Shown here piece after piece: positions 16,438 to 50,567 of a DNA stretch of 64,000 bases; the first letter of the stretch is position 1; each line of letters opens with the position of its first letter. The notes below the pieces were generated by a model, which saw nothing but the letters and a program-made list of their open reading frames with translations, had not been told where the DNA came from and ran no database searches. Location of the stretch: positions 1 through 64,000 of the IMG/VR virus record IMGVR_UViG_3300048590_000360; one strand, given 5' to 3'. The DNA is from a virus. The translations under genes were made by a program, and so were the position numbers.

Positions 16438-19400
16438 TTACGTATTCATCTCTGATGGTTCATATCTAATAGCAGCAGCGAAAAGTTTTTGTTCACCTTC
16501 TGTTGTGCTTTGTAACGTCACTGTAATAGAGTGACACCTTATATCGTCTCCGTTAATTAGGGGTAAGTCTATGTTTGGTGTATTTGCGTCTTGGAGTAAA
16601 GATGCTTTGTGGACACCCTCAAAGGTTTCAAAATCTTCACCAATTAGAGAACTACTTTGACCGAATTGATTTTCAATAAGTGGACATTCCCATACTTCAG
16701 ACGATTCTACCAATATATTCTTAAAGAATTTAATGATTGTAGGATTGTCATTGAACACTACTGTAATAGAAGATGGGGTAAATTGTCCCCTGAATGTATT
16801 AGGTAAGCCCACTCCATGCTTGTATAGTCTCCCGTTCCAGAATGAAATATAAGTTGAAGGTATGTTTTGTAATTGTTCACTATCATAAGAATATGATGTA
16901 GTCCACCGGTTTTTAGATTCACTGAATGTTATTGTAATACCGTCAATATCTTTAATTGCATTTGATAACGATACGTTTACTTGTGACGGACGAACACCTT
17001 CTGGACGTGTACTATTGTCAGTGGTAATTTGTATCTGTTTGTATATAGGTTCAAAGGATAGAATATATTCCTTCCTTTCACTAACGTATACGCCATGCAC
17101 ATAGAATTTCCTTCCAGAAGATACCCTGTCATTGAATACCTTGTTAAATAATGCTGACATAAGGTAACTATTCTGTACAGCATCATGGTTAGAATCTATT
17201 CTTTCTATCCCAGAATTAAAGTTCATTCTTAGCACGGCACCCCTATTGGCATCTGTGAAGTATATATTTGCACCGTACTGCGCGAATGATTCAGGGTTGG
17301 TGCTGATACCGTATTCTAATCCATAGTAATTCATTTTAGAAATCACTGTAAGTTCTGAACTTATATCTCCTACTACGCCCCCAGAAGCAGAAAATAAAAC
17401 ATCCTTATTCACCAATGCAAAGCCAACCTTATTTTCTTGGAATATTACTACACGTTCCCCTTGTGAGTATGCTTTCTGAATGTGGCCATAAGCATGATTG
17501 AAAGTCTTAGTACTTTCTGGGAAGAAGTTACTAAGTCCATCAATTTGTGTTTCTGGAATGTATAGTTCGCTCCAATATACAGTTACGGGTCTATGGATTT
17601 TTCTTAATAATTTATCTACATTATTTCCACGTCCTTTACTCCATACGTTTGAAGTATAAAAGTCTGATTGGGAAAAATCTTCGACAAGGTAGTCCAATGG
17701 GTCTGTGAACCCGATTGCCAAATAATTATATCTTCTTGGCCTAATCCATATATCACCGTCATAGATATCAATAATTGCCGGTTGTAATGCAGTCTGATTC
17801 TGTAATGAACCTTTGTGTAATCCGTTTTCAATTTTATATGTGTTTCCTATTTCGTAATATAGTTGGTTTTCTGATACCTTTTTTGGCGTGTAAATTTCAA
17901 CCATGTTTCCAATAGTAATCTTCATGGTATTTGTTTCGTCTGCTGCCACGGTAATTTCTGAAGTACTTTCATCGAAAGAAAGTATTTCATATTCATAGAA
18001 TGATGAATACACTTGTCCTGTAGAAGATGTCGGATTAAACCATACAGATCGAATCTTATCACCTTTAGTATATGTGTAGGATAATAGTGGCCGGGAATCA
18101 TAAGCATCATTAAACTGTTGCAAGGTGCCTATGAATATTTTGTATCTATTATTGGCCTGTGCTGTAACTGTACCAACTCTCGTCCATACAAACCTTGCTG
18201 TTTGATTGTTCCCTGCATATACTGGCGCGTAATGTGTCGCCCATTCTGGAGGTGAATGGTGAAGTTCCATACGAATGAAGTTCCTTCCGATGGTACCTAT
18301 TTCTGTCGGGAATGGGGCATATGGCATAAAACTACGGTTGGTCTGTACCTTCCCATATCTTCCTGCATAATCGTAATACACTAATCCTACAGGGTGCGTG
18401 GAACCTGACTTAAAGGAAGGGGATACTCTTACCCGTGACGATGTGTTGTTGACGTTTACCTGGGTAACTATTGATTCGGTGTAATTAAGTGGGTATATAG
18501 ATGTAACAGGGTCTGATGTATTGATTATCGTTTTAATGATTATTCCATATCCTGAAGTAAACGGTACAGCTTGGCAAGAAATTACAGATGAGGTACCAAA
18601 CACGGAACCAGTTAGTATTTTAGGCAGTAATGTAGAATCCGTATTTAGTTTGTTGATGATGTTACTGATTAACAATCCTAAGTTTGGGAATGTTTCTTCG
18701 GATGAAGTAACAATGTGCGTATATTTAACTGTTATGTCTTTTGTTTTGTAAACATTCGCTGCACTTGGAGTCTCAATGTTTAGATACTTAATTTCTAACT
18801 TAAATTGAATATCAATAAGGTCGTTTTCAAAGAATGTTCCAGAGAAGTAAATATCTAAGTCTGAAATTTTTTGACCGTTAAGTCCTGAAGGTATGCCTCC
18901 TATTACATCTATTGTCGTAGAATCGGTGTTCTTTGTGTATAATGGTGTGTCCCCTGATACTTGGTCTATGTTACTTATTCGTTCACCGGAACCGTATATT
19001 CTACCTTGTTCAATATTGAACTGTTGGTCGTCAAGTGATATAATACTTGCGAAGGAACTTCCTAAGTCAATATTATCAAAACCTTCAGTAATATTAAAGT
19101 AACCTAACCTTTGCCCGTCTAACAGGCATTGTTCCTTTGCAAGTAACGGTACAAAGTCATAGGGTTTATTTACCTCTGTTTGGGAAAGTAAAGTTAAAGT
19201 CCGGTCATTGTAGAAGGGATATGTGTATGTTGAAAAATCTATTGGGGCAATACCGTCAACCCATGTAGAAGAATCATCTTTATTAATGGTATCCACCAGG
19301 TAAAAGTCTCCAGAGTTACCATACCTAACACACACATTTATCTTTCTTATCGCTGAGTCACCTGTTTCAAAGGTAATGTTCAATACATTGTTCTGATAGT

Positions 19401-20082
19401 TGTTATATGTGGCGTTGATTCTGTCATAGGAATCTGTTAGCGGTGGCGCGGATACTTTAGATATAGTAGAATATGCAGACCTTTTATTGTCCCAATCGAC
19501 GAATTGTGTCCTGAATTGAAATACATTACCTTTTAAGTTGTTGAATTTCTTTGACGAATCCGAATCATAGTTAAGTGATGGGGGTAATACCGGTTGTGGG
19601 ACAATATTGTTTATGTATCTTTCGGTAAGTAATGAGGGATACATCCCTGACTTGGCTCGTTGAATATTAATACATCTTGGATGCCCGTTCCCATCAGTGA
19701 AATATAATAGACCATTAAGAACAAAAGGTGTAACAATAAGGTAGTCAAGATTAAAGTTTAGAACTTTAGATTCAATGAGTATTGTAATGTCATTAAGCAC
19801 AACGTCATATTCAAATATTGAATGTTTGGCGTTTGAATTGTAAAGGAAGTAGTAAACTTTGTTGTTTATATCATCAAGGCATGAGCCGATAACCTTATTA
19901 GCTCCAGATGGTAGTACGGTATCAATTAATAGGTCGCCATTAACATGTTGGACTGTTCCAACAGCTTTGTCCTGATTACCTGAGTTTTCAATATTGACTG
20001 CGAACCTATAGTCACCTTGTTTTACGGTTCTATCATCTGAATCGGAGTCCATTCCTCCAAAGAATATCCTTTTCTCTAACAT
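16438..20082 (-). CDS. large virion structural protein (tail/baseplate/fibre-like), 1214 aa
   Basis: Long ORF. The ORF-track start 20115 is GTG inside a terminator hairpin. ATG 20082 (MLEKRIFFGG...) lies 4 nt after a TATCTTTG box. Confidence 0.75.
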   Translation of the reverse strand: MLEKRIFFGGMDSDSDDRTVKQGDYRFAVNIENSGNQDKAVGTVQHVNGDLLIDTVLPSGANKVIGSCLDDINNKVYYFLYNSNAKHSIFEYDVVLNDITILIESKVLNFNLDYLIVTPFVLNGLLYFTDGNGHPRCINIQRAKSGMYPSLLTERYINNIVPQPVLPPSLNYDSDSSKKFNNLKGNVFQFRTQFVDWDNKRSAYSTISKVSAPPLTDSYDRINATYNNYQNNVLNITFETGDSAIRKINVCVRYGNSGDFYLVDTINKDDSSTWVDGIAPIDFSTYTYPFYNDRTLTLLSQTEVNKPYDFVPLLAKEQCLLDGQRLGYFNITEGFDNIDLGSSFASIISLDDQQFNIEQGRIYGSGERISNIDQVSGDTPLYTKNTDSTTIDVIGGIPSGLNGQKISDLDIYFSGTFFENDLIDIQFKLEIKYLNIETPSAANVYKTKDITVKYTHIVTSSEETFPNLGLLISNIINKLNTDSTLLPKILTGSVFGTSSVISCQAVPFTSGYGIIIKTIINTSDPVTSIYPLNYTESIVTQVNVNNTSSRVRVSPSFKSGSTHPVGLVYYDYAGRYGKVQTNRSFMPYAPFPTEIGTIGRNFIRMELHHSPPEWATHYAPVYAGNNQTARFVWTRVGTVTAQANNRYKIFIGTLQQFNDAYDSRPLLSYTYTKGDKIRSVWFNPTSSTGQVYSSFYEYEILSFDESTSEITVAADETNTMKITIGNMVEIYTPKKVSENQLYYEIGNTYKIENGLHKGSLQNQTALQPAIIDIYDGDIWIRPRRYNYLAIGFTDPLDYLVEDFSQSDFYTSNVWSKGRGNNVDKLLRKIHRPVTVYWSELYIPETQIDGLSNFFPESTKTFNHAYGHIQKAYSQGERVVIFQENKVGFALVNKDVLFSASGGVVGDISSELTVISKMNYYGLEYGISTNPESFAQYGANIYFTDANRGAVLRMNFNSGIERIDSNHDAVQNSYLMSALFNKVFNDRVSSGRKFYVHGVYVSERKEYILSFEPIYKQIQITTDNSTRPEGVRPSQVNVSLSNAIKDIDGITITFSESKNRWTTSYSYDSEQLQNIPSTYISFWNGRLYKHGVGLPNTFRGQFTPSSITVVFNDNPTIIKFFKNILVESSEVWECPLIENQFGQSSSLIGEDFETFEGVHKASLLQDANTPNIDLPLINGDDIRCHSITVTLQSTTEGEQKLFAAAIRYEPSEMNT

Positions 20083-22304: not shown

Positions 22305-22496
22305 TTAAAGGTGGTCAACCTCAAGTTTTTGCCAAGTTTTACCATCGGTAGTAAACTCATTCTTGCACAAATCATAAACTACCATTCCGACATCAGGATT
22401 AAAATGATTCTCAGTGTCAAACCAAGCTGTTAGGAATGGCAACTTTACTTTGGTTGTAATTAAGTATCTCATAATCAAAAACACTGCTGCCAACAT
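22305..22496 (-). CDS. hypothetical protein
   Basis: 63-aa ORF with ATG start. Confidence 0.45.
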   Translation of the reverse strand: MLAAVFLIMRYLITTKVKLPFLTAWFDTENHFNPDVGMVVYDLCKNEFTTDGKTWQKLEVDHL

Positions 22497-22547
22497 TCGT
22501 TTACCGCAAGTGGGGGTGACAGCGTTAAACCCACTTGCAGTTTTTCA

Positions 22548-22595
22548 ATTTAACTTTCGGTTCGGCAACTTCGCCAAGCTGCAAAACGTTTAGCC
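22548..22595. repeat. attC-like structured repeat (outlier copy)
   Basis: Ends atttAAC ... GTTTAGCC. rc reads GCATTGGCTAAACGTTTTGC..., homologous to the 50663 element end GCATTACGCCTAACGTTTTGC. The distal end shares AGTTAAATTGAAAAACT with the 26806-26822 and 49226-49240 regions. Confidence 0.4.
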
Positions 22596-22612
22596 AATGC
22601 CTCCGGCACGGT

Positions 22613-24537: not shown

Positions 24538-24859
24538 GGTTTCTTGGTTTTTAAAGGTTAATTAAATTTATAAACATAACATTTCATCTCCATCGCCAGC
24601 ATCCAGCGGACACCGTAAATCTTTTTTGGTTTCATGGTTTCTATTTTTTAGTTTTGGTTTATAGTACATATACGCCATCATCTCATAAATAGTTTCAAAA
24701 AAAATAAAAAAAACTTAAAAAACTTTCAGGTATCTAAAACTCAAGCGCAAAAACTTGGCGCGTGAACAACAAATAACATTACACACCAGGTAAAAAACAA
24801 AACAGTAAGACAAAACACATATAAATATATCTTTCCTTCAGTTCCTTTCACCAGGTCAT

Positions 24860-24940
24860 TTCCTTCGGTGTCCTTCCTTCGGTGTCCTTCCTTCGGTGTC
24901 CTTCCTTCGGTGTCCTTCCTTCGGTGTCCTTCCTTCGGTG
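24860..24940. repeat. 14-bp tandem repeat, 5.8 copies (ttccttcggtgtcc), iteron-like
   Basis: Exact units at 24860, 24874, 24888, 24902 and 24916, plus a partial unit at 24930. Degenerate copies lie just upstream (24831-24859). Confidence 0.9.
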
Positions 24941-25948
24941 CATCAGCGCATTAGCTAATATTACAACAAAGTAGAACGAGTCCGCGGAACGTAGATCGTA
25001 ACGGGGTTAAACCTTTTGTTGTTATCTTTGTACCTGGCACCGGCTAAATGAATCCTTCAACGTGCTGACACTAAAGTACTCATAACATGCATTATGTTAA
25101 ATAGGGATTTTTGTAACCGATTAAAAACTAACGTGTTATATTATTGTCTATACAAGAGTTGTTTTATAACGGGTGAAAAGAAAATATAAAACATTGATTT
25201 TCAAGGATGAACAAAGCAGTGTTATTTTGTCGTGAAAATTCGTTAAAAGGTGGTGTAAAACGGGGAAAGGTGCGGACGGCTGCAATACGTTAAATGTACT
25301 GCGTTATCGTTGCGCGGTTGGTGTCGGGATATAGGTTGAATGGTTTGGCTGTGTTAAAACCGATTTAAATCATATTTTAACGTATCCTTGCTGCGGTGTA
25401 TCTTCTCGGAATGTACCCCATGCCCCTCTGAATCCCGTTTCCTTTTTCGCACATCCCCCCTTCAATGCCATATAACCCCTTGACTGGACCGTTACGTATG
25501 AGATTCAATGGGGTTATTGAGGGATACTGCAGGATGGTGTTTGAAGGAATTGGTATTGGTGAAAGGGGCTGTGTGGAATTGTGATTTGCTTGATGGGTAT
25601 GTGGGGTGTCACTGTATTATTGAATTATTTGTTTAAGTGACATTGCATAACTATGTAATTTTCTGGGGTGTTATGTGTTATTACTTAAAGTAATTGTTTA
25701 ATAGTTGTGTGTGTTGATTGGTTGTTTGGTGGTAGGCTTCCAACGGTTTGTTGGTGTTTTATTGGGGGCTGATTGACACTAAGTATGTGATTTTGAGGTA
25801 TGGTTATTTTTTGTGATTTGGTGATAGGATTCCAATAATGACGTGGTATTGAATATTTTTTTTGTTTAATATATACTATGGTGAGTTCTGCTACAAGCTA
25901 CGACACATTTCATTAGTGGGTTCATTCGTAAGCTGTTGTTGATTATAA

Positions 25949-25990
25949 TAGATATTTCAGTTTTTGTACAACGATTTTGTAAATGTCCAT
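25949..25990 (-). pseudogene. truncated copy of the first 14 codons of the tyrosine recombinase gene
   Basis: rc ATGGACATTTACAAAATCGTTGTACAAAAACTGAAATATCTA (MDIYKIVVQKLKYL), then it diverges and stops after one more codon. Confidence 0.7.
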
Positions 25991-26035
25991 GCTGTAACCC
26001 CTTATTTTATTGGTATTGTTGTTATATGGTAGTTA
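25949..26035. repeat. 87-bp exact direct repeat, copy 1 (junction plus recombinase 5' end)
   Basis: Identical to 48213..48299. Ends in ggtaGTTA, followed by a different cassette. Confidence 0.9.
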
Positions 26036-26044
26036 TCGGCAACC

Positions 26045-26407
26045 CTAAGCGGACACCACAAACAATTCAGTTCCATATAGAGAATAGAAAATATTTTGTA
26101 GTTCGTGGACATATTGTAAGTCTGTTAAAACTAATTGACAAACAAAATTGCCTTGAATAAATCTAAATTTATCATCAGCAGTTGATATACCTACATTGTT
26201 GTCTTTGTTGTAAAATTTATCTTGTATTTTGCTGTTTGTAAATCCAAAATCGGTGAGCCATTTATCAGTTAGTTTTACAGGATAAAATGGTTTGTCTAAT
26301 TCATTTTGTAAGTACATTGCGAATAAAGAGCCATCCAACTTTATAATATCTTCGTTAAAAGAAACATAGTTTCCTACTCTTATTTGTGTTGCGTTTAAAT
26401 ATTTCAT
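26045..26407 (-). CDS. hypothetical cassette protein
   Basis: 120-aa ORF with ATG start. The stop lies 7 nt from the GTTATCG junction core. Confidence 0.6.
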   Translation of the reverse strand: MKYLNATQIRVGNYVSFNEDIIKLDGSLFAMYLQNELDKPFYPVKLTDKWLTDFGFTNSKIQDKFYNKDNNVGISTADDKFRFIQGNFVCQLVLTDLQYVHELQNIFYSLYGTELFVVSA

Positions 26408-26454
26408 TTTTTATTTGTTTAAATTGTTAATAATCATTCCGAAAGAAGGGCAGC

Positions 26455-26541
26455 CGATAACAGCGTATAAAGTAAACCGCCAATCCCCACCCACGTAGCC
26501 AACGCAATTGTCGGCTTCCCTTATACGCAAAAGCGTTAGCG
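26455..26541. repeat. attC-like structured repeat
   Basis: Ends CGATAAC-AGC ... GCAAAAGC-GTTAGCG. Stem gcgtataa (26463-26470) / ttatacgc (26521-26528). Confidence 0.55.
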
Positions 26542-26550
26542 GAAATGATT

Positions 26551-26793
26551 TTACCCACCCATATCTACAATAGTAGGTTTAATCGGTTCACCGCCAACCG
26601 AAGCGAATAGAGATAGTTTTTTACTTGGTTTACCATCTTCAACCATCCAAGCAATTGAACCGCAACAAGGCGTTGAACCTGTCCAGTTTTTTAATTGAGT
26701 TTTACATACGTTACATTCCACCCAAAAATCACTATCCGCTAACACATTATTTGCGTCAGTGGGGGTGTTGTTTTTCAAATCGTCGTTTTGCAT
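26551..26793 (-). CDS. small zinc-ribbon-like cassette protein
   Basis: 80 aa with CNVC ... CCGS. The first ~17 codons lie inside repeat 26737..26870. Confidence 0.55.
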   Translation of the reverse strand: MQNDDLKNNTPTDANNVLADSDFWVECNVCKTQLKNWTGSTPCCGSIAWMVEDGKPSKKLSLFASVGGEPIKPTIVDMGG

Positions 26794-26870
26794 ATTATTA
26801 AAATTTAGTTTTTCAAATTAACTGTGGTGGTGTAATGCCCCACCGAACGCAAATAATCGGCACGTTAGCA
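26737..26870. repeat. attC-like structured repeat, long subfamily (134 bp, downstream ATG in loop)
   Basis: Ends CGCTAAC ... GTTAGCA. Arms attatttgcgt (26746-26756) / acgcaaataat (26847-26857) and gtgggg (26759-26764) / ccccac (26838-26843). The stop of 26865..27107 lies inside gTTAgca. Confidence 0.55.
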
Positions 26871-27107
26871 GTCAGTTTGCCCCAAATCACCGTAAGGCTT
26901 TTGAAGTGCTTTACTACTAATAGCTATTTCTCCGTTAGGAAGTTCATTGCAATGGCAAACCGAACTGCTAACAGGCGGTTGGCGCAATACTTGTTTCATC
27001 GCTTCGATTAAAGTGTGGTACATTTCAGCATCGCTTACTTTGTCATTCTCGCTTTTCGGGTATCTATTGTCTATTACCCATTGTGCTATTTCTTGTATCG
27101 TTTTCAT
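26865..27107 (-). CDS. hypothetical cassette protein
   Basis: 80-aa ORF with ATG start. Confidence 0.55.
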   Translation of the reverse strand: MKTIQEIAQWVIDNRYPKSENDKVSDAEMYHTLIEAMKQVLRQPPVSSSVCHCNELPNGEIAISSKALQKPYGDLGQTDC

Positions 27108-27171
27108 ATCAAAATTTTGTTTTAATTATTCGTACTGCGCCAACCGCCAAACCGTTATAACCAATAGGGGT

Positions 27172-27369
27172 TCAGTCCTTCGATTTAACATTTCGGTTGG
27201 CGGTTTTCTTATTTTTTTGCACACGCTCTTTGGTTTTTTCAAAACCATTAGATTTTGATTCTCGTTCCAAAATATCCTGTGCCAAGTTTTTAAAATCCGT
27301 GTTCTCATCAATGGCTCTCTTGCTCAATGATTTTACACATTCATCTGATAAATCAAGTAGTTTTTTCAT
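27172..27369 (-). CDS. ribbon-helix-helix-like small protein
   Basis: MKKLLDLSDECVKSLSKRAIDENTDFKNLAQDILERE shows a beta-alpha-alpha pattern. It is the last gene of a three-gene unit. Confidence 0.5.
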   Translation of the reverse strand: MKKLLDLSDECVKSLSKRAIDENTDFKNLAQDILERESKSNGFEKTKERVQKNKKTANRNVKSKD

Positions 27370-27805
27370 ATCCTTTATTTAGTATTTTTCTACAACTTTC
27401 CGCGTCCTTTCCGTTTGGTTGGTGTTTTAGTTTCCACAAAGAACTACTTGCGTAATGTTTTGCCAAACTTTCGCACTTTTCAAATGGAACAATAGTATAG
27501 ATATACGAAGTAATCTCTATACTGCTTTCGGTATTACCGCCAAACATAGCTTCGCTTTCTTCAACACAACAAGATAAAACTGGTTCACTTTCATTATCTT
27601 CAAATTTTATCACTGAAAGTTCTTTAATTACATCACTTATTGTAGTAGATTTTAATTGTACATTCTTTTCTTTTTTATCAAACCAATGAATGTAATTACG
27701 ATGTAGTGTAGTAAAATCACGTTTTTTCAAAAGCTCAATAGCTTCATTCCTACTTTTAGTAGTTGATTTTAGGTAATGCTGATATACTATTTCTTCTTGT
27801 GTCAT
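27353..27805 (-). CDS. hypothetical cassette protein
   Basis: 150-aa ORF that overlaps the downstream RHH-like gene by 17 nt. Confidence 0.6.
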   Translation of the reverse strand: MTQEEIVYQHYLKSTTKSRNEAIELLKKRDFTTLHRNYIHWFDKKEKNVQLKSTTISDVIKELSVIKFEDNESEPVLSCCVEESEAMFGGNTESSIEITSYIYTIVPFEKCESLAKHYASSSLWKLKHQPNGKDAESCRKILNKGYEKTT

Positions 27806-27816
27806 AATCGTTATTT

Positions 27817-28107
27817 TTAAAGGGTTTTAAAGTAGTTAAGTAATTGATTAAAATACTTCCCGTAATACTCAATAGCATAGCCATTCATATAAGCAGGTTT
27901 TACACTTTCTCTTTGTGAGGCAACCACATTAATTCCTAAAGTTTTTGCTGCAAAATCAACAAAGTTTTCAAGTTTGGTGTCGAGCCATTTAATATCACAA
28001 TCCCTAAATTCTCCTTTATTTAATTGGTTTATTATTTTAGTAATCGGGTCTATTAAAGAAACTTCGATAATAAACTGGTCAATTGCTGTGTTGTTTGTTG
28101 CTTTCAT
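27817..28107 (-). CDS. hypothetical cassette protein
   Basis: 96-aa ORF. TATATTTG box 24 nt upstream. Confidence 0.6.
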   Translation of the reverse strand: MKATNNTAIDQFIIEVSLIDPITKIINQLNKGEFRDCDIKWLDTKLENFVDFAAKTLGINVVASQRESVKPAYMNGYAIEYYGKYFNQLLNYFKTL

Positions 28108-28131
28108 TTTGTTTCGTTTTTAATTCTGATA

Positions 28132-28139
28132 CAAATATA
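28132..28139 (-). promoter_or_regulatory. -7 promoter box (rc TATATTTG)
   Basis: Overlaps the first unit of the 3 x 9-bp repeat at 28135..28161. Confidence 0.5.
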
Positions 28140-28161
28140 TACCATATATACGATATATACA
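28135..28161. repeat. 3 x 9-bp tandem repeat (ATATATAC-N), operator-like
   Basis: atatatac at 28135, 28144 and 28153, with an exact 9-bp period. Confidence 0.8.
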
Positions 28162-28291
28162 AGTAAAAGTTTCAAATATTTTAAAACTAACTGATTTTCA
28201 AAGAGAATAATTTTTAAATCCCTCCCTAAAAAAATAAGAAAACTGCTGTTTCTGCTCCGAATTTGGCTTTGTGCTAAACAATCCCTACTGG

Positions 28292-28346
28292 TTATAACAG
28301 CACATTGGCGGCATTAAAACGACCGCCAATCTGCATCACGTTGTAT
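28292..28346. repeat. attC-like structured repeat (55 bp)
   Basis: Ends TTATAAC-AGC ... GCATCAC-GTTGTAT. Stem attggcgg (28304-28311) / ccgccaat (28323-28330). Confidence 0.55.
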
Positions 28347-28494
28347 GCAATTATGGCGCAAAAGACCAGGTAAATAGCCAAATATTTTTAGTAAATAGTG
28401 AGTTTAGGATTAGAAAATGACTTAATTTTTGTCAAGCCTTGCAAAGTAGATTTGCTGAAAAGTATTTTCAAAGCGAATTACGCTAAAAGGCTTG

Positions 28495-28502
28495 CAAAGG
28501 TA
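28495..28502 (-). promoter_or_regulatory. -7 promoter box (rc TACCTTTG) with TTTG 20 nt upstream, inside an ORF-free cassette
   Basis: rc TTTGACTTTGTCTTTTTTTTCTAATACCTTTG. No ORF of 20 aa or more lies downstream before repeat 28292..28346. Confidence 0.4.
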
Positions 28503-28688
28503 TTAGAAAAAAAAGACAAAGTCAAATTTTTATTCTAATACGATCATAAACTGCTATTTATTAAAGAGATGGCTTGGTTTGTAAAAGACTAATCTTATCC
28601 CTTTGGGGCATAAGACCAATATTTTTCAATCATTTAACTAGGTTTTTTGCGGCATAACTGGGACTGTTTTCATAACTTAGCCGAGTTA

Positions 28689-28772
28689 GAATAACAGCAC
28701 ACAACAACAGGTTTGTTCAATGCCTGCCGCCGGCGCAACACAGGCACTGCACAAACCTGCTATACGTTAGGT
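28689..28772. repeat. attC-like structured repeat
   Basis: Ends GAATAAC-AGC ... GCTATAC-GTTAGGT. Stem caggtttgt (28708-28716) / acaaacctg (28751-28759) plus an inner tgcctg/caggca pair. Confidence 0.6.
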
Positions 28773-28813
28773 GCAATAAAAAATAAATTTCCCACCGCAC
28801 CAAACTAACAACA

Positions 28814-29080
28814 TTAATCCTTCTTTTTAGAGTATTGAAAAACCAATTGGTTGGCAATGTGGTTAAACTCTAAATTGTTTTTGTCATCGCCTGTAATCTT
28901 ATTGAAAAGATGCGTAGGCATAATGTTTGCCAACGCGTGGAAAAAATGCGTAAGGTTATCGCCTTCTTGTAATTCTTGTTGGTCAATGTGAAAATCACTT
29001 TCGCTATCTTCATCAAAGAGTTCCGCAATTTTTCCACTTAACATTGCCGCATAATGTAAATGTTTTTCGGTCTGTGCCAT
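28814..29080 (-). CDS. hypothetical cassette protein
   Basis: 88-aa ORF with ATG start. Confidence 0.55.
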   Translation of the reverse strand: MAQTEKHLHYAAMLSGKIAELFDEDSESDFHIDQQELQEGDNLTHFFHALANIMPTHLFNKITGDDKNNLEFNHIANQLVFQYSKKKD

Positions 29081-29128
29081 AATTGAAATTTGTTTTAAAA
29101 GCCCACGCTAAATTTATTTTTTACAGAC

Positions 29129-29227
29129 ACCTAACAGCAGGTAGGCAAAATGCCGCTATGAGCCTGAGTGCTTTGATATTTACATTTGTGGTAAGCGTCA
29201 CTATCGCCTACCTGCAAACCGTTAGCG
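29129..29227. repeat. attC-like structured repeat
   Basis: Ends ACCTAAC-AGC ... GCAAAC-C-GTTAGCG. Perfect 10-bp stem gcaggtaggc (29137-29146) / gcctacctgc (29206-29215). Confidence 0.6.
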
Positions 29228-29234
29228 GAAAATG

Positions 29235-29570
29235 CTACATCCACTCATCCAACGGAACATTTTTAGTTTTAAATTTTTTGCCTTGAACTGTTAGCACGTA
29301 GTCAAAATTTGCTCTTTGCCAATTACTTTGGTGTATCAACCCCATTCTAACCAATCGAAACAAAATAGACGAATTAAATGTGAACTCACCTTTTGCAGAA
29401 CAACAAGTAACTGTTGATGTACAAGATTGTGTTATCAATTGCCATCCATTTTGAAGACAAAAAACAATCATATTTTGTTTTGGAGTTAGTTTTAATTTAA
29501 CCGCATCATCCGCTAACACGTGTTTTGCGTCAGGCGGGGTTTCGTGGTTAATTGCAGTTTGTGTTTTCAT
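29235..29570 (-). CDS. hypothetical cassette protein
   Basis: 111-aa ORF. The N-terminal ...PPDAKHVLADD is encoded inside repeat 29511..29643. Confidence 0.55.
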   Translation of the reverse strand: MKTQTAINHETPPDAKHVLADDAVKLKLTPKQNMIVFCLQNGWQLITQSCTSTVTCCSAKGEFTFNSSILFRLVRMGLIHQSNWQRANFDYVLTVQGKKFKTKNVPLDEWM

Positions 29571-29643
29571 AATTTAATTTTGTTTAAGTTGAAAGTTTGC
29601 GGTTTTCAAACCCGCCCGAACGCAAAGCACCTTAACGTTGTAG
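29511..29643. repeat. attC-like structured repeat, long subfamily (133 bp, downstream ATG in loop)
   Basis: Ends CGCTAAC ... AAC-GTTGTAG. Arms gtgttttgcg (29520-29529) / cgcaaagcac (29621-29630) and ggcggg (29533-29538) / cccgcc (29611-29616). Confidence 0.5.
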
Positions 29644-29655
29644 GCAATTGCCTTG

Positions 29656-29889
29656 CTATAAAAGCGTATTGCCACATTTTCCGCAAAAGTCTTGAACTTT
29701 ACTGTTTACCCTGTTATTTTCGCAATCGCAAGGCAACTGTTCGCTTCGCCCTACAACAGGGGCTATATGTAATACTTGGATCATTGCTTCGTAAATAACT
29801 TCAAGTTGATTTGAGTTAAATTCTTGCTCAACGCTTGTAAAGTTTCCAAATGTATTTAATGCTTCTAATAATATTTTTTCTTTATCCAT
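29656..29889 (-). CDS. small cassette protein with C-terminal CxC...CxxC
   Basis: 77 aa ending ...LPCDCENNRVNSKVQDFCGKCGNTLL. Confidence 0.5.
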   Translation of the reverse strand: MDKEKILLEALNTFGNFTSVEQEFNSNQLEVIYEAMIQVLHIAPVVGRSEQLPCDCENNRVNSKVQDFCGKCGNTLL

Positions 29890-29940
29890 TTCTATTAAGT
29901 TTTATCGTTAATAAATCGTACTACATATAGCCCCAAACCG

Positions 29941-30204
29941 TTAGCTGCAAGCTGGCAGACTAATCCACGCAATAACGCTTCCGTTTGTATGTTGTGGTCG
30001 CATATCATTAACCCAAACAATTACCCGATTATCTTCAAGCCTTAAATGACATACATCCATTTTACCATAGTCGGTTAATATTAGCACTGGTTTACCAAAT
30101 TCGGGTAATTGTTTTTCTACTGGAATCCAGCCAGCAGCTAACACAGTATTGCCGACAATTGCGGGTTCTGTGGTAGGTTCAACTTTTTGTTTTTTATTGT
30201 TCAT
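29941..30204 (-). CDS. DUF551-like cassette protein
   Basis: GWIPVEKQLPEFGKPVLILTD ... VIAWISLP resembles DUF551 (match by eye only). The stop lies inside gTTAgct. Confidence 0.5.
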   Translation of the reverse strand: MNNKKQKVEPTTEPAIVGNTVLAAGWIPVEKQLPEFGKPVLILTDYGKMDVCHLRLEDNRVIVWVNDMRPQHTNGSVIAWISLPACS

Positions 30205-30269
30205 TTGTGCAAATTTTGAAGTTTTTTAATTCTAATTCCGCAACTGCGGCAATACTCGGAACGTTAGCA
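30136..30269. repeat. attC-like structured repeat, long subfamily (134 bp, downstream ATG in loop)
   Basis: Ends AGCTAAC ... GTTAGCA. Arms agtattgccg (30145-30154) / cggcaatact (30247-30256). Confidence 0.5.
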
Positions 30270-30275
30270 CCAATA

Positions 30276-30509
30276 CTACGAGTGTGCTGCAAAAACCTGA
30301 TTATCCCTTAATCGTATTTGTTCTCTTATCTTTTCGGCTAATTGTTCTACTTCGTCAGAATAAGAACATATAACAGTTCCGTCCTCTTTTTTTAAGGCTA
30401 TAGGCATTGCGTTTGCGTATAAGTCAAATAGTGCCTTAAATAGTTCTTTTCTGTGGCTATCATTCAAAATAGCTTCTCTTTGTTTTTGGTAATATTTTTG
30501 GTCTTTCAT
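30276..30509 (-). CDS. hypothetical cassette protein
   Basis: 77-aa ORF. The conserved leader AGTACGGATTATTAAC lies upstream. Confidence 0.5.
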   Translation of the reverse strand: MKDQKYYQKQREAILNDSHRKELFKALFDLYANAMPIALKKEDGTVICSYSDEVEQLAEKIREQIRLRDNQVFAAHS

Positions 30510-30543
30510 TCTATTTATATTTTGTTGTTAATAATCCGTACTG

Positions 30544-30608
30544 GTGCTAACAGCAAATAAGCAAAACTCCGCTATCGCTACGCTTCGCCTATTTGCAAAC
30601 CGTTAGCG
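30544..30608. repeat. attC-like structured repeat (65 bp)
   Basis: Ends GTGCTAAC-AGC ... GCAAAC-C-GTTAGCG. Stem gcaaataagc (30553-30562) / gcctatttgc (30587-30596), with one A-C (G-T on the minus strand). The stop of 30603..30920 lies inside gTTAgcg. Confidence 0.6.
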
Positions 30609-30920
30609 GTCATTGCCGCCAAGCCCAAGTCCCTTAATTATCCTTTCCATAAAGTCGCCACTTTTTTTCACATCGCAAGTTTCGTTAAACCATTTTTCGT
30701 CCTCTTCATTTTCAGGAAAAACAATGTTGCACCTCATAGCAGTTTCCCTTAGAAGCGGCAACGAACCGCTAACATCGGGTTGGGCTAAATTTTTATTGGC
30801 TACGAGTTGCGCGTATTCGGAAAGGATAATTGATACTTTCCCTTTCGTGTAGAACTCTTCCCCTTCATCATTAGTATAGTCTGGTGTCCACATTTTCAAA
30901 ACTTCCATTTCTCTTGTCAT
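30603..30920 (-). CDS. hypothetical cassette protein
   Basis: 105-aa ORF with ATG start. Confidence 0.55.
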   Translation of the reverse strand: MTREMEVLKMWTPDYTNDEGEEFYTKGKVSIILSEYAQLVANKNLAQPDVSGSLPLLRETAMRCNIVFPENEEDEKWFNETCDVKKSGDFMERIIKGLGLGGNDR

Positions 30921-31022
30921 GCTATTTATATTTAGTCGTTAATAATCCGCCAATAAAAACTTCGCCAACCCGTCCACCGTTATAGCACATTAAAACGATG
31001 CTATAACAGCGCATAAGAGAAG

Positions 31023-31286
31023 TTAAGGCTTAGATAGTGCTTCGAGCAAAGATTCTGCATGAAGAACAGCCAACTCACTAATACCACTTGGTGAGAATGT
31101 CATACTTCCTCCTTGTGTCATTCCTCCGTTACAATTTGCTAATAATCCTTGCATCGCTAATCCTGCAAAATACTCCTTCTTAGTTAAACCATATTGGGTA
31201 AAACTTCCATTAGGATCAAGCATAGAATCTATGTATTCTTTACCTTTAATTCTAGCATTCGTTTGCTGTTCTGTTTCCTTTTCCAT
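31023..31286 (-). CDS. hypothetical cassette protein
   Basis: 87-aa ORF. The stop lies inside gTTAagg. Confidence 0.55.
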   Translation of the reverse strand: MEKETEQQTNARIKGKEYIDSMLDPNGSFTQYGLTKKEYFAGLAMQGLLANCNGGMTQGGSMTFSPSGISELAVLHAESLLEALSKP

Positions 31287-31397
31287 AATCTAATTTTTTT
31301 AATTTGTTTCGCCTTAACTTCTCCTATGCGCCTACCGTTAGCGGCAAGCGTAGGACACCACTCCGAATAAACAGCATCCTACACAAACCGAAAAAGG

Positions 31398-31772
31398 CTA
31401 CACAATTTCTCTCAAGTGCCGTAAATTGCTTTCTGCCTTTTCATTTAGGTCATTCAAACTGTAAAGCAAACGAATGATTTCTTCCGTTACGCTTTCGGGC
31501 TGTTTTTCTTCCATAGCTTCTTTAAGCGTTGAAGGTTCGTCATACCTTTTAATCGTTTGCAATTTGCTTTTAGTTTCGCATACAATACCATCGTAGCGAT
31601 TTACGGCACTTTGTAACCTTTCGATAATCACATTCAATTCAGGTTGATGAACCGAAGTAGGCATATCTTCTGTTAATACTTCTGGCGCAATTTGAATTAC
31701 TTTTTCATAATGCACTTCTCCACCCTGAGTTACTTTCAGAATGTCACCGATTTTCAATTTACTTTTGTCCAT
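31398..31772 (-). CDS. hypothetical protein
   Basis: 124-aa ORF with ATG start. Confidence 0.6.
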   Translation of the reverse strand: MDKSKLKIGDILKVTQGGEVHYEKVIQIAPEVLTEDMPTSVHQPELNVIIERLQSAVNRYDGIVCETKSKLQTIKRYDEPSTLKEAMEEKQPESVTEEIIRLLYSLNDLNEKAESNLRHLREIV

Positions 31773-34776: not shown

Positions 34777-35052
34777 TTATAGTTTTATAAAGTCTTTAGT
34801 GCTGTTGAAAGTTAATTCTAAACCGTCGGTTCCTTCGTTAATTGATTTGTAAAGGTAGTCTTGTTCTCCAATTTTCACCCATATAACATAGCGAAGAATA
34901 CCGAATTCCTTGTGGTGGTCAATATCTGTAGTAATCGCTGATACAATGGCGCGGCCATGTCCCCCTAAATTCACTAACCCACCAACCTTGTAATTGGCAG
35001 ATTCACCCCATTTGATACGGATAATACTATTGGAAACTACTTCACTTTTCAT
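34777..35052 (-). CDS. hypothetical protein
   Basis: 91-aa ORF with ATG start. Confidence 0.55.
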   Translation of the reverse strand: MKSEVVSNSIIRIKWGESANYKVGGLVNLGGHGRAIVSAITTDIDHHKEFGILRYVIWVKIGEQDYLYKSINEGTDGLELTFNSTKDFIKL

Positions 35053-35954
35053 TTCTTTAACTTCTTTTTACGTAGATCATTGTCCTTCGGTGAGGACTTA
35101 TCTAATGCACCAACCTTATCTTTGAAATTACGAATTTTATAGTTTCCACCAATTCCAGAAATATCCTCAGCACGCCAATATCCACCAACACCACCAGATG
35201 TATCACCTTTACTCCTATATGTATCCCCACGGTATTGTCCTGTTTTATCCGTACCTGAGATGTTTTTCTTTCCTGAACCTTTTTCGTACAGTTGCCCCCC
35301 TGTATCTATACGACGGGTTGAATTTAGATTAGATAGACCATTACCTGAATTAATTTTAAATTTACTCTTAGACTTTGTGAAACCCCCTTGTCCATCAGGA
35401 CGAAAAGATGCTACTTTGATTTTTTTAAGTCCCCCTCGTTTGTTTTTAATCAAAGTCACTCTGTTATATCCCTTCCTATCCCTTACTTTAGTCCCTTCTT
35501 CTCCACCTTTGGCCTTACCTCCCGTGTCTAATGTCTCATCCTCTTTGGCCTTAACTGTGGTCGTTCGTCTTTTAAAGACTTTATTGAGAATGTTTCTTTT
35601 TCCATAATATGCTGTCGTTTTATGGGATGTACCCGTTTCTCCTGTAGTGGATGAACCTGACTTATCCCCTTTGGGTTGTTCGTCCTTCATGTTTCGGATA
35701 ATATTTGCAGTCCCCGTCGTGAAACCGTATTTCCCAGCAGTTTCCTTTTCAAGTGTTTCAGACTGGTCTTTCTTTAATCCCCCAGCGTATGTCTCACTAC
35801 CTTTATGTTTACTTGAACCATCTTTCTGGCCTATAATAACATTTACGTTCAGGTCTTTCTCTTGTTTACCTTCTCCTTGTGCAGTACTTTTAACACTACT
35901 TTCTACATATCCGTATGTAGTTCTGCGCTTATTCCTTTTTCTCAGCCTGTCCAT
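35049..35954 (-). CDS. highly basic Gly/Lys/Thr-rich protein (possible internal or DNA-associated virion protein)
   Basis: 301-aa low-complexity K/R/G-rich ORF. TATCTTTG box 15 nt upstream. Confidence 0.6.
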   Translation of the reverse strand: MDRLRKRNKRRTTYGYVESSVKSTAQGEGKQEKDLNVNVIIGQKDGSSKHKGSETYAGGLKKDQSETLEKETAGKYGFTTGTANIIRNMKDEQPKGDKSGSSTTGETGTSHKTTAYYGKRNILNKVFKRRTTTVKAKEDETLDTGGKAKGGEEGTKVRDRKGYNRVTLIKNKRGGLKKIKVASFRPDGQGGFTKSKSKFKINSGNGLSNLNSTRRIDTGGQLYEKGSGKKNISGTDKTGQYRGDTYRSKGDTSGGVGGYWRAEDISGIGGNYKIRNFKDKVGALDKSSPKDNDLRKKKLKK

Positions 35955-42541: not shown

Positions 42542-43162
42542 TTATACTAACAGGTATCCTGTTTCTGATGTTCCGGTTGGGATATTTGTCGAGAAAGTGA
42601 TTGTTGTCACATCTGTAGTGGCATTGTAACTTGAACTTGAAACAACAAGTATTCTGTCGTTATTTGTACCGAGCATAGATACCACAACTCCATTGGTGAA
42701 GATAGATGTCTTATCGCTTTCAAAACTTGCCAATGATATAGTATCATTTGTAGCGTTTACCACGTCGAATTCATAGGCTGTGGAACCTGCTTTTTGGAAT
42801 TGGCGTACAGTAATGGCTGATTCTGTTTCACTGGTGTCAAGTTTTTCCAATCCGGCACCTTGGTTGTCGTATAGAATAACAGCATAGTTATCTGAAGGGT
42901 CTGTATCAATATGGCGTATTCTATTAATGTTTACGTATATGGTAAGACTGTTTGATAACAATACACTAATCAGGGTATCTGAGTAGGTGGCTATGCTTGA
43001 CGGGGAATCAGTAACAACCACGGATTTTCTGATTCCGTCGGCTTGTTCAAAGTAGTACACTGCTGCACCTAATGTATCTGTGGCTATTTTGGTAATATCA
43101 GTATCCAATACTTGGAAACTTCCAGAACCGTCTGCTAAATTAAGAATGATAGTTTTTGCCAT
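42542..43162 (-). CDS. hypothetical virion structural protein
   Basis: 206-aa Ser/Thr/Val-rich ORF. TATCTTTG box 21 nt upstream and a strong terminator downstream. Confidence 0.6.
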   Translation of the reverse strand: MAKTIILNLADGSGSFQVLDTDITKIATDTLGAAVYYFEQADGIRKSVVVTDSPSSIATYSDTLISVLLSNSLTIYVNINRIRHIDTDPSDNYAVILYDNQGAGLEKLDTSETESAITVRQFQKAGSTAYEFDVVNATNDTISLASFESDKTSIFTNGVVVSMLGTNNDRILVVSSSSYNATTDVTTITFSTNIPTGTSETGYLLV

Positions 43163-47462: not shown

Positions 47463-48254
47463 TTAGATTGGTAAATTCACTTTTGAAAGCAACTGATTTG
47501 AAACGTGCGTGTATATTTCCGTGGTTTTTATATTTGAGTGTCCTGCAATCTTTTGAATAATCCTTGTGTCTGTACCTGATTCAAGCATAGCGGTAAATGA
47601 TGAATGCCTGAGAAGGTGGAAATGATAATCCTTGCCGATGTATTTTTTGACAATTTGGTTGCAACTTGCAGATGAATATTGATTACTGAATTGCCCGTTA
47701 AAAAGGTATTCTGTTGGTTTATATTCTTTGTAGTATTCTCTTAGCGTGGTGAGTATTGTTTGGCTTAGTGGCACGATTCTATCCTTTCTACCTTTGGCGT
47801 TTTTGATGTAAATTATCATTCTACTGGAATCAATGTCGGTTATCTTTAGGTTGATTATTTCTGAAACTCTAAGTCCTACACTAAATGCCAATGATATAAT
47901 TGCTTTATGCTTTAAGTTTTCGATGTTATTGATAGACTTAATAAGGTGTTCTCTATCAATTACTCTTGGTAGTTTCTTTTCGGAACGGGGTCTGTTAAAA
48001 TGAACCTTGTCGTATTTTTTGTTTAATCCGTATTTGTATAAGAATCTTATTGCGTTAATAATTTGATTCTGTTGTGATACTGATTTGAACGGATAATTGT
48101 CTAAATACTGCTGAAACTCTTTTGCGGAAACTCTTGATATATGTACTTTACTTTTTGATAGGTATTCGTCAATATAATATAAGTAAACTTTTTGTGTGTT
48201 TTCTGAATAATTTAGATATTTCAGTTTTTGTACAACGATTTTGTAAATGTCCAT
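47463..48254 (-). CDS. tyrosine recombinase/integrase, short XerC/D-like (263 aa)
   Basis: Catalytic signature GLRVSE (Arg I), KGRKDRIVPL, HLLRHS (His-x-x-Arg), GHSNIKTTEIYTHV (His ... Tyr). No obvious extra insertion of the IntI type. Confidence 0.9.
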   Translation of the reverse strand: MDIYKIVVQKLKYLNYSENTQKVYLYYIDEYLSKSKVHISRVSAKEFQQYLDNYPFKSVSQQNQIINAIRFLYKYGLNKKYDKVHFNRPRSEKKLPRVIDREHLIKSINNIENLKHKAIISLAFSVGLRVSEIINLKITDIDSSRMIIYIKNAKGRKDRIVPLSQTILTTLREYYKEYKPTEYLFNGQFSNQYSSASCNQIVKKYIGKDYHFHLLRHSSFTAMLESGTDTRIIQKIAGHSNIKTTEIYTHVSNQLLSKVNLPI

Positions 48255-48299
48255 GCTGTAACCCCTTATTTTATTGGTATTGTTGTTATATGGTAGTTA
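48213..48299. repeat. 87-bp exact direct repeat, copy 2 (recombinase codons 1-14 plus 45-nt upstream junction)
   Basis: Identical to 25949..26035. Ends in ggtaGTTA of the GTTAGGT core (48296-48302). Confidence 0.9.
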
Positions 48300-48513: not shown

Positions 48514-48597
48514 ACCTAACAGCGGTTTTGTGCAAGTTGCCCAACCGGCTCAATGCCCACGCTCCGCAGCCTGACACAAAGCCGCAAAACGTTGGCA
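48514..48597. repeat. attC-like structured repeat
   Basis: Ends ACCTAAC-AGC ... GCAAAAC-GTTGGCA. Stem gcggttttgtg (48522-48532) / cacaaagccgc (48575-48585), with one T-G. Confidence 0.6.
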
Positions 48598-49203: not shown

Positions 49204-49265
49204 CTTTTGTACTTTATTTAAACATTAGTTTTTCAAATTCCCCACCTGACATAAAGCAGTGGGCG

Positions 49266-49942: not shown

Positions 49943-50038
49943 GCATAACACGTGCTATAAGCAAGTTTGCCAATAACATTTGTGCTAAATTTGAACATTT
50001 CTGCAAGGCAAACCTGCTCATAGCACCATACGTTGTGC
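49943..50038. repeat. attC-like structured repeat
   Basis: Ends GCATAAC-ACG ... CCATAC-GTTGTGC. 20-bp stem gtgctataagcaagtttgcc (49952-49971) / ggcaaacctgctcatagcac (50007-50026) with two A-C (G-T on the minus strand). Confidence 0.6.
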
Positions 50039-50258: not shown

Positions 50259-50322
50259 ATTGTTTTTAATTTAGGTTAGTTGTGGCAACGTGCCATACAC
50301 TCGTCCGTTAGCCGTAATGCCG

Positions 50323-50565: not shown

Positions 50566-50567
50566 AC

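Follow-up and report, generated by a model that had tools for sequence, protein, structure and literature searches.

Two arrays of small open reading frames (ORFs) in a 64,000-nucleotide stretch of viral DNA (positions 1 to 64,000 of IMG/VR record IMGVR_UViG_3300048590_000360, hereafter the window) are built of cassettes separated by hairpin elements with covarying stems. Each array ends at a simple site that forms no hairpin, and in one of the two this site adjoins the gene of an Xer-like tyrosine recombinase. We consider it probable that the arrays, called B (elements at 26.4-31.4 kb) and C (elements at 48.5-51.3 kb), are integron-like cassette platforms carried by a crAss-like phage. The original prediction, made from the letters alone, had read the spacers of array B as integron attC-like sites, and this is supported by natural breakpoints, by complementarity of the cassette ends, by the attI-like simple site and by the adjoining recombinase. 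The system is not, however, a canonical IntI/attC integron.

Hairpin elements and cassette ends

On the minus strand, which carries the genes, an element has the form y'-YAAC-G, a 4-5-nt bulge (GTTT, TTTT and the like), a stem, a loop, the returning stem, 0-1 nt and T-GTT(A/G)-y. In the folded form a base helix of TAACG with TGTTA, including an invariant G·T pair, is followed by the bulge and then by a covarying stem of at least 10 bp. The bulge is one-sided (4-5 nt opposite 0-1 nt) and always lies on the same arm, which is the crossover arm (the R' arm of the folded strand). The asymmetric unpaired AAAC beside GTT that had been pointed out earlier is real and is this bulge, and all ten of the stem sequences quoted with it were found exactly where they had been placed. 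The window holds 17-18 elements, all of them within the two intervals given above, with loops of 4-281 nt. The original prediction erred on lengths, which it put at 55-134 bp. What it took for degenerate or short copies at 27138-27202, 29905-29946 and 31311-31395 are really the 5' arms of large elements (114-335 nt) whose 3' arms lie inside or past the next ORF, and therefore the element size runs from 47 to 335 nt.

The compact hairpins (limits AAC to GTT; these and all elements listed here are on the minus strand) lie at 26459-26537 (E1), 28296-28342 (E2), 28703-28768 (E3, with a 21-bp stem), 29133-29223 (E4) and 30549-30604 (E5) in array B, and at 48518-48593 (E6) in array C. Array C has further hairpins at 49947-50034 (20-bp stem) and at 50572-50659, the latter overlapping the annotated start of ORF 50323-50643. 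In the large elements the 3' arm is found 114-188 nt downstream, inside the next ORF, and the loop contains a promoter-like block, the ATG and 13-45 codons. Such elements are located at 26741-26866 (the loop holds an AATTTGAAAAACT block, the ATG and 17 codons of ORF 26551-26793, and the 3' arm is coding), 26970-27156 (a 13+3 bp stem, 3' arm inside ORF 26865-27107), 29515-29639, 29755-29942 and 30140-30265 (enclosing the starts of ORFs 29235-29570, 29656-29889 and 29941-30204, respectively), 49144-49267 (enclosing the start of ORF 48604-49203), 50196-50309 (3' arm in ORF 50043-50258) and 51063-51246 (3' arm in ORF 50973-51194). Element E7 (31005-31339) has a 21-bp stem and a 281-nt loop that contains the entire ORF 31023-31286 (87 aa). 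The stop codon of the upstream ORF had been said to sit inside the terminal GTTA of four elements; it does so at 26865, 29941 and 30603 but not at 31023, where the GTTA belongs to the inner stem rather than to the element end. Right after the element at 31005, positions 30963-31004 read TGTTA-TAGCA-TCGTTTTAATG-TGCTA-TAACG, which looks like an 'empty cassette' with both flanks and both cores and only 11 nt between them.

A descriptor scan (AACG, a 4/5-nt bulge, at least 9/10 paired positions, 0/1 nt, TGTT) gave 19 matches on the minus strand, 17 of them within 26.4-31.4 or 48.5-51.3 kb, and six weak matches on the plus strand, whereas random windows from a second-order Markov model gave about four on both strands combined (about two per strand by chance). 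By a Watson-Crick-only criterion (at least 9/12) there were 18 minus-strand elements and no plus-strand element. The motif CGTTAGC occurs eight times in the window, always on the plus strand, and seven of the eight copies are at 26.5-31.4 kb. When seven compact elements were aligned at fixed offsets from their conserved ends, 96% of the cells paired and compensatory double changes were present at seven of ten inner pairs; upon sliding the partner by 1-3 columns pairing was 33-49%. Our own covariance model (R1), built from seven compact elements with trimmed loops, recovered only two short-loop copies (E<1e-7).

The cassettes obey a further rule, by which the 6 nt that follow TGTTR in one element show complementarity to the 6 nt that precede YAAC in the next. 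Over 78 adjacent pairs from the window and nine viral contigs the mean was 4.56 complementary positions of 6 (54 pairs scored at least 5), as against 2.16 for 1166 non-adjacent pairs and 2.18 for the two flanks of a single element. Within the window the rule holds for essentially every cassette and mostly perfectly, an example being the three-gene cassette TGTTATAACCA...TGGTTATAACG that runs from 28296 to 27156; the E3/E2 pair has one mismatch. The last cassettes obey the rule at the terminal sites, with TGTTATCGGC...GCCGATAAC at 26035 in array B and TGTTAGGTGCA...TGCACCTAAC at 48299 in array C. The two ends of an integron cassette belong to one site, which is whole only in the excised circle. 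The cassette-specific end complementarity seen here is the classical signature of such cassettes.

Recombinase, terminal sites and natural junctions

The recombinase (47463-48254, minus strand) is an intact protein of 263 aa that matches Pfam families PF13495 (Phage_int_SAM_4) and PF00589 (Phage_integrase) and is transcribed away from array C. Among NCBIfam models it scored 169 bits with XerA (archaeal) and 150 bits with the integron integrase TIGR02249, both under the cut-off (265 for TIGR02249); the PRK15417 score was 97 against a cut-off of 435. The protein is collinear with Pyrococcus XerA (4A8E) and has 26 residues where VchIntIA (2A3V) has 74. Hence, the IntI-specific insertion, the additional domain near patch III that is peculiar to integron integrases, is missing, and bacterial and phage homologues of 265-280 aa likewise lack it. 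We regard the protein as a candidate cassette recombinase that would catalyze the exchanges described below.

A simple site, TAAC|TACCATATAACAACAAT (the bar marks the junction position), terminates each array, and no hairpin is found there. In array C it is located at 48255-48299 on the minus strand (...TGCACC-TAAC|TACCATATAACAACAATACC...), 42 nt before the recombinase ATG; it therefore has the position of an integron attI, at the array boundary and adjoining the 5' end of the integrase gene. The 5' flank of the last array C cassette, TGTTAGGTGCA, is the exact complement of TGCACCTAAC. At the downstream end of array B a second attI-like site is joined to the first 42 nt of the recombinase ORF (25949-26035, minus strand), with no recombinase body after it. 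These 87 bp are 100% identical to 48213-48299, and the repeat begins exactly at TAAC (26032-26035). As array B closes with the site and only the first 42 nt of the ORF, it looks like a second platform from which the recombinase gene was lost. The 1.4 kb that follow the truncated start (24538-25948) have no ORF, no Rfam match and no tRNA. They hold a 14-nt tandem repeat (~24830-24940), the copy number of which varies by metagenome sample (+14 nt in contig L004, -28 nt in L005).

The element ends, yTAAC...GTTAG/y, fit the imperfect palindrome of attC R'' (RYYYAAC) and R' (GTTRRRY), with variable stems, a conserved structure and a variable terminal structure. Such ends, together with arrays of small ORFs, would also be expected of a captured fragment of an ordinary integron, that is, a cluster of attC sites lacking an integron integrase (CALIN), with canonical sites dependent on a host IntI. 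CALINs are known in virulent phages, including a Polaribacter phage; those reported are small, with 2-3 sites that were found by canonical attC models and were recombined by IntI1 (Qi et al. 2023; PMC9892861). They resemble the present arrays in having attC-like sites between co-oriented small ORFs in lytic phages, but their description includes neither an attI-like site nor a phage recombinase, and no variation of cassettes from isolate to isolate (PMC9892861). The earlier suggestion that such arrays had not been described in phages thus needs qualification, since phage CALINs are on record, although the system reported here is not among them. We give hardly any credence to a captured CALIN as the explanation. 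The recombinase without the IntI insertion is conserved beside the arrays in phages and bacteria, and the phage ORFs are reversed relative to canonical cassettes. In canonical attC sites both arms contain an unpaired central spacer, and the R''/L'' arm of the bottom strand also has extrahelical bases (PMC8946536), whereas the elements have no symmetric unpaired central spacer and carry their bulge on the arm opposite to the canonical extrahelical bases. Hence, of the attC properties first proposed, structure over sequence and RYYYAAC...GTTRRRY-like ends stand, whereas the canonical fine structure and the 57-141 bp size range do not, as sizes are 47-335 nt and the extra bases are on the other arm. 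In Bacteroidetes, integrons were nearly absent from the IntegronFinder 2.0 results, which comprised In0 elements and a single complete integron, that of Salinibacter (PMC9024848).

The coincidence of breakpoints in related genomes with AAC|GTT had been named beforehand as a test, and it was borne out. Polaribacter phages Freya_1-10 (Forsetiviridae) encode a recombinase homologue that is 39% identical, and we compared Freya_1, 2, 5, 6, 8, 9 and 10, with Freya_10 as the reference. Outside the array the flanks are 98-100% identical to Freya_10 in all isolates compared, and the variation sits immediately upstream of the integrase. Freya_10 has five sites, s1 to s5, with AAC| at its positions 8079, 8921, 9823, 12714 and 13021, of which s5 is a simple site, AAC|ACCCCTATAACAACAATAAG; the motif TATAACAACAAT is common to the array C simple site and the Freya site, and the Freya hairpins and flanks follow the same rules as those of the window. 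Relative to Freya_10, s5 is joined to s1 in Freya_1, to s2 in Freya_2, to s3 in Freya_5 and to s4 in Freya_9. Freya_8 has an internal deletion that joins s2 to s3, and Freya_6 carries a different two-ORF block between s3 and s5. All six different junctions are exactly at YAAC|. The four nested variants all end at the attI-like site, and such a nested series would be the expected outcome of successive insertion there. The original paper on Freya gave 44.0-48.9 kb, 66-78 ORFs and one integrase, and cassettes were not mentioned (PMC8776804). Aberrant excision of the specialised-transduction type was rejected for Freya, as every inserted block is bounded by YAAC at both ends and no phage DNA was lost.

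A junction of the same kind was found in the population of the window phage itself. Contig Ga0498920_0004801 (L002) of sample 3300048836 lacks a 300-bp cassette (29640-29939, minus strand) made up of a hairpin, a promoter-like block and a 77-aa ORF: the contig matches the window from 43422 to 29939 and resumes at 29639 to run to 29541, the two matches overlapping by the 4 nt CGTT, which read AACG on the gene strand. The partners of this natural deletion are the CAAC|G of the large hairpin at 29515-29639 and the TAAC|G of that at 29755-29942, and a full version (L008) coexists with the deletion in the same sample. All seven junctions, the six of Freya and this one, fall within the shared AAC(G), as is expected of crossover at the G|TT of an integron core site, in which the cassette ends reconstitute one site.

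A cassette is also shared with an unrelated phage. The 80-aa cassette ORF at 26551-26793 is 99% identical over 284 nt in an unrelated phage contig of 29% GC (L009) and is also present in L010 and L011; in L009 the homology stops on its 3' side exactly at GCTAACG|. The same contig has, at 2611-3540, two near-identical intergenic stretches (GGTCGGAAACG(T/C)CATGGTTGT(G/A)TGGT(G/A)AAATTGGTAGACACGCAGAAC...) that look like tRNA fragments or split tRNA genes. In one sample, contig Ga0498929_0005927 ends exactly at the TGTTA of E7 (window position 31004) and overlaps Ga0498929_0039919 by exactly 127 nt (31004-31130), which is only suggestive of an assembly branch or of population heterogeneity starting at the 31004 site.

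Relatives of the recombinase with 55-70% identity are encoded in IMG/VR contigs of 31-210 kb, and the layout of array, simple site and recombinase recurs in at least nine unrelated viral contigs (L013-L018, L020, L021 and L023). These have 2-17 elements each, nearly all on the recombinase strand directly upstream of the gene, and keep the flank rule. In DNA and protein comparisons with the window, the recombinase was shared and otherwise just a few modules, either cassettes or hairpins, the homology of which ended at AAC or GTT. The same layout is present in the bacterial genomes of Chryseobacterium sp. Leaf394, a Flavobacteriales metagenome-assembled genome (UBA720), other Chryseobacterium species and Epilithonimonas, which have ~124-nt elements, the flank rule, a simple site TAAC|ACCCAAATATACGC and a 278-280-aa recombinase without the insertion. 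The bacterial cassette ORFs are on the opposite strand and diverge from the recombinase as in canonical integrons, whereas those of phages share the strand that folds. Exact complementarity to the last cassette flank served to locate terminal sites, which read YAAC|N5-7-TATA(T/A/C), in 14 of 17 loci, mostly 42-164 nt before the recombinase start.

Positions 1-8000 of Chryseobacterium sp. Leaf394 contig_7 (L100) and a second locus, L099, have ~124-nt elements and cassettes of 0.7-1.8 kb on the opposite strand that encode DUF5984, NOV_C and SEC-C-motif proteins plus unknowns; these arrays appear to be analogues of chromosomal integrons, of a type that would escape standard tools. Upstream of ORF 22305-22496 in the window, a decayed element (22497-22612; GGCTAAACG-TTTT-GCAGCTTGGCGAAG...AATTGAAAAACT...CCCCCACTTGCGG) resembles the bacterial and L099-type elements, but has TAAACG in place of TAACG. 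The rest of the 20-24.5 kb small-ORF region has no elements, and the region may be an old, fixed array.

Alternating site orientation (TAAC... then ...GTTA) and modules bounded by inverted repeats would also suit double-stranded modules moved by a host XerC/D-type enzyme or a transposase, either like MITEs (miniature transposable elements with inverted repeats) or like the pdif modules of Acinetobacter plasmids, in which case lysogeny or dimer resolution would be the only task of the phage recombinase. In comparisons of loci, a block of homology is in some cases a hairpin module by itself and in others an ORF module by itself, much as in the Acinetobacter modules, and a MITE census found many elements common to Flavobacteriales and their viruses and may include such repeats uninterpreted (PMC11602168). 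The pdif modules share with the present system genes placed between inversely oriented sites of the Xer family, neighbours that share sites so that orientation alternates, and an Xer-like recombinase clade. They differ in that their sites are complete 28-bp double-stranded sites read by host XerC/D, and in having no hairpin with a covarying stem, no terminal simple site beside a dedicated recombinase and no such cassette-specific end complementarity. In the window we found no 28-bp double-stranded site with two inverted 11-bp arms and a 6-8-bp centre: as double-stranded DNA each junction has one conserved arm (TAAC), and the partner GTTA is 47-335 nt off, so that a two-arm Xer site arises only upon folding. 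Moreover, there are no target-site duplications, the elements are confined to co-oriented arrays beside the recombinase (0-3 matches on the other strand or elsewhere), the stems diverge and yet covary, unlike those of recent MITE copies, and the G·T/A·C asymmetry given below favours a single-stranded substrate. An origin as MITE-like or pdif-like modules is in our view quite improbable.

The folded strand and the array genes

Folding on both strands, a check advised in the original prediction, gave minus-strand folds that were consistently more stable than the plus-strand folds. For a valid strand test the elements must be collected by a Watson-Crick-only detector, as a detector that accepts G·T biases the count and a symmetric one admits false positives, with which the signal vanishes. 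Under Watson-Crick-only ascertainment the non-Watson-Crick positions were 11 G·T versus 2 A·C in the window (p=0.02) and 67 G·T versus 22 A·C in ten other loci (p=2e-6), where 89 elements were on the recombinase strand and two on the opposite strand. The excess of G·T over A·C therefore indicates that the minus strand folds, and it points to the AACG...TGTT strand as the one selected to do so.

Several observations weigh against the integron-like interpretation. In phages the strand that folds is at the same time the mRNA-sense strand, so that selection acting on RNA could likewise lead to this G·U bias. For the cassette shared with L009, the 5' boundary falls within a hairpin loop and not at a site, and some blocks of homology between loci end at a 3' TG|TTA, beside those that end at a 5' TAAC|G, so that a single cleavage position does not explain all of the mosaicism. 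The blocks that end at the 3' GTTA may reflect use of both strands, at different rates, or a contribution of additional processes. Freya is temperate, and in phages of this type the recombinase could be mainly a lysogeny integrase, with the simple site as its attP. The circular junction of the deleted cassette and the attI-like sequence gave no matches in a metagenome collection evidently without the source samples; as the attI-like pattern should have matched the phage's own Joint Genome Institute (JGI) contigs, both zeros are uninformative.

The first of these points is accommodated by an explanation in which the hairpins are RNA elements of a polycistronic early transcript (processing of the ribonuclease III type, terminators or masking of starts) and cassette turnover is a by-product of homologous or microhomology recombination between the conserved sequences. 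The PeSL (promoter-early stem-loop) elements of T4-type phages, reportedly described by Arbiol et al. in 2010 in Genome Biol Evol, would be the model. They resemble the present arrays in that small early genes lie between repeated stem-loop and promoter units, with gene shuffling and mini-circle excision in hyperplastic regions, but they differ in that shuffling was ascribed to homologous recombination between ~70-bp conserved repeats, and in having no dedicated tyrosine recombinase, AAC/GTT core, covarying stems or end-complementarity rule. An RNA function would tolerate G·U pairs on a sense-strand fold, and it agrees with the large elements, which take in the next ORF's ATG and 13-45 codons together with a promoter-like block, with the lack of a host-type TAnnTTTG promoter in the arrays and with the overlap of only 4 nt at the single junction of this phage. 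However, it leaves unexplained the cassette-specific end complementarity and the non-hairpin YAAC|..TATA.. site beside a tyrosine recombinase that ends every array in unrelated phages and bacteria. The seven independent junctions are all in a 3-4-nt core with no longer homology, and in the Chryseobacterium arrays the ORFs run opposite to the favoured fold, which is thus antisense to the genes. Searches of the window, L013, L015, L099, L100 and Freya against Rfam 15 gave no match at the gathering score or E-value thresholds; the one hit was a chance-level miRNA match (E=0.83). Rfam itself includes no family for attC. We hold RNA elements with incidental recombination to be an unlikely explanation, although an RNA role may exist alongside a DNA role. 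Two transcriptional functions were rejected: the hairpins are not followed by a T-run as in intrinsic terminators, and the favoured fold is on the non-template strand, which excludes template-strand hairpin promoters of the N4 type.

Array B has 14 cassette ORFs of 65-150 aa (26045-31772, minus strand), the only Pfam match of which is a weak one to DUF551, and a Pfam search with 25 concatenated cassette ORFs gave nothing beyond that match. The cassette ORFs of the window and of all phage loci point towards the recombinase in a single orientation. As the variants seen are insertions and deletions, this uniform orientation led us to reject shufflon-like inversion as the main activity, which had been considered because each ORF lies between inverted repeats. 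Each cassette has its own promoter-like block, a recurrent GATTATTAAC(A/G)A or AATTTGAAAAACT located ~20-35 nt ahead of the ATG; host-type promoters (TAnnTTTG) were not found within the arrays. The absence of that motif, together with the GATTATTAAC or AATTTGAAAAACT blocks, suggests that the array genes belong to a different transcription class, possibly one of a virion RNA polymerase or an early one. Elsewhere in the window the Bacteroidota-type -7 motif TAnnTTTG (tatctttg) lies upstream of many structural and late genes, examples being 16438-20082, 35049-35954, 42542-43162, 55905-57479 and 60758-63160.

The ORFs at 26865-27107, 29656-29889 and 50973-51194 encode three paralogous cassette proteins (...EAMxQVL...PV...CxC...). 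Their 13-nt coding 3'-arm segments are wholly different, yet in each the upstream 5' arm matches perfectly; here coding sequence covaries with intergenic sequence. Array C has two copies of a 61-68-aa ORF that are 91% identical (49264-49472 and 51243-51451), with homology beginning at CGTTATGCTC, the site core. In the cassette at 28343-28702, which the elements at 28703 and 28342 delimit, no ORF of 40 aa or more is present on the minus strand (JGI calls only a 46-aa plus-strand ORF), and the following cassette opens with ~190 nt of non-coding DNA (28108-28295).

The window as a whole is the genome of a crAss-like phage with 37% GC and nearly all genes on the minus strand, and encodes a protein with the crAss muzzle C-terminal domain, the terminase large subunit (TerL), the portal and a 2862-aa ORF. 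Its nearest cultured relatives are crAss-like phages of Flavobacterium and Cellulophaga, with a TerL identity of only 32%. A megablast of the array region against a phage collection gave no match and no TerL relatives were found in IMG/VR; the same phage is present in three JGI metagenomes. Short internal tandem duplications of 80-85% identity are present at 12667-12855 (within the 2862-aa ORF) and at 60484-60625 (within ORF 59589-60692).

Proposed mechanism and relation to integrons

On the gene strand a cassette unit consists of G, the bulge, the hairpin, T-GTTA-y, the promoter-like block with its ORF or ORFs, and y'-YAAC, with the hairpin as the attC analogue; its loop can be a few bases long or can hold the promoter and the gene start. 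For the 263-aa recombinase beside array C, the most likely point of cleavage is within AAC, on the 5' arm of the minus strand in its folded form. The enzyme would bind a folded hairpin of single-stranded DNA, rather than act on double-stranded DNA or be guided by RNA, with contacts to the TAAC/GTTA box on one side of the bulge and to the initial turn of the stem on the other. Strand exchange with another hairpin site would excise a circle, and exchange with the double-stranded simple site beside its own gene would give insertion. In the excised circle y' would meet y and the base helix would grow from 5 to ~10-11 bp, which would explain why the two ends of each cassette are complementary. Small early or accessory phage genes with their own expression signals could in this way be gained, lost and swapped among phages and possibly bacterial chromosomes.

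When the plus strand of the window is taken as 'top', the recombinase points away and is followed by attI and then by the cassettes, each ending in its own site, and the folded strand is the bottom one. Given this integron geometry, crossover confined to AAC/GTT and a fold on the bottom strand, an IntI-like mechanism is the most likely. The likeness to integrons includes a tyrosine recombinase gene with its 5' end beside a simple attI-like site followed by the cassette array; sites that conserve structure over sequence, have AAC...GTT as their ends, are unpaired asymmetrically in one segment and vary in the terminal loop; crossover within AAC/GTT; opening bases of a cassette that are complementary to the beginning of that cassette's site; and the preference for the strand that is 'bottom' relative to attI and the recombinase. 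The repeats within an array are alike, as are the VCR repeats of the Vibrio cholerae chromosomal integron, and in the bacterial versions of the new system the cassette ORFs are divergently oriented, as in integrons.

The differences are also plain. The recombinases are Xer/XerA-like proteins of 263-280 aa without the IntI-specific insertion. The 4-5-nt bulge is on the cleaved arm, whereas canonical attC has a central spacer and extrahelical bases on the other arm (PMC8946536). Loops extend to 281 nt, and a promoter, the beginning of a gene or an entire gene can lie inside them. In phages, ORFs and fold share a strand, the ORFs face the recombinase and promoter-like blocks of their own precede them; promoterless cassettes driven by Pc and pointing away from attI are not seen there, although the bacterial arrays do have the canonical orientation. 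Finally, the system resides in lytic-type crAss-like phages and siphoviruses of Bacteroidota. A full-text search of the open-access literature found no description of this combination of recombinase and sites. To our knowledge, integrons are regarded as essentially bacterial and IntI-dependent, with hardly any in Bacteroidota. Since the IntI signature is a requirement of IntegronFinder, a recombinase that lacks it would go unrecognised.

We lean, with some reserve, towards a broader proposal: that these loci represent a previously unrecognised integron-like family of Bacteroidota and their lytic-type and temperate phages, with a short Xer/XerA-like recombinase lacking the IntI insertion, mirror-image attC sites and self-expressed early or accessory cassettes, plausibly for host takeover or anti-defence. 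Cassette turnover would be fast enough to differ between plaque isolates of one bloom, and cassettes may pass between unrelated phages and bacterial chromosomes.

If true, a different clade of recombinase serves the same strategy, in which a hairpin site that folds, a simple site and a tyrosine recombinase together allow genes to be stockpiled and shuffled. The system is embedded in phage genomes, one of them crAss-like, and the early and accessory regions of phages have long been noted as hyperplastic; it would give a mechanism for this that is concrete and can be tested. It may also account for the exchange of cassettes among unrelated phages and, possibly, between phages and hosts. Direct tests are feasible, since both Polaribacter phage Freya and its host are cultured and an insertion series is already available among natural isolates, and the recombinase and its sites could become genetic tools for Bacteroidota.

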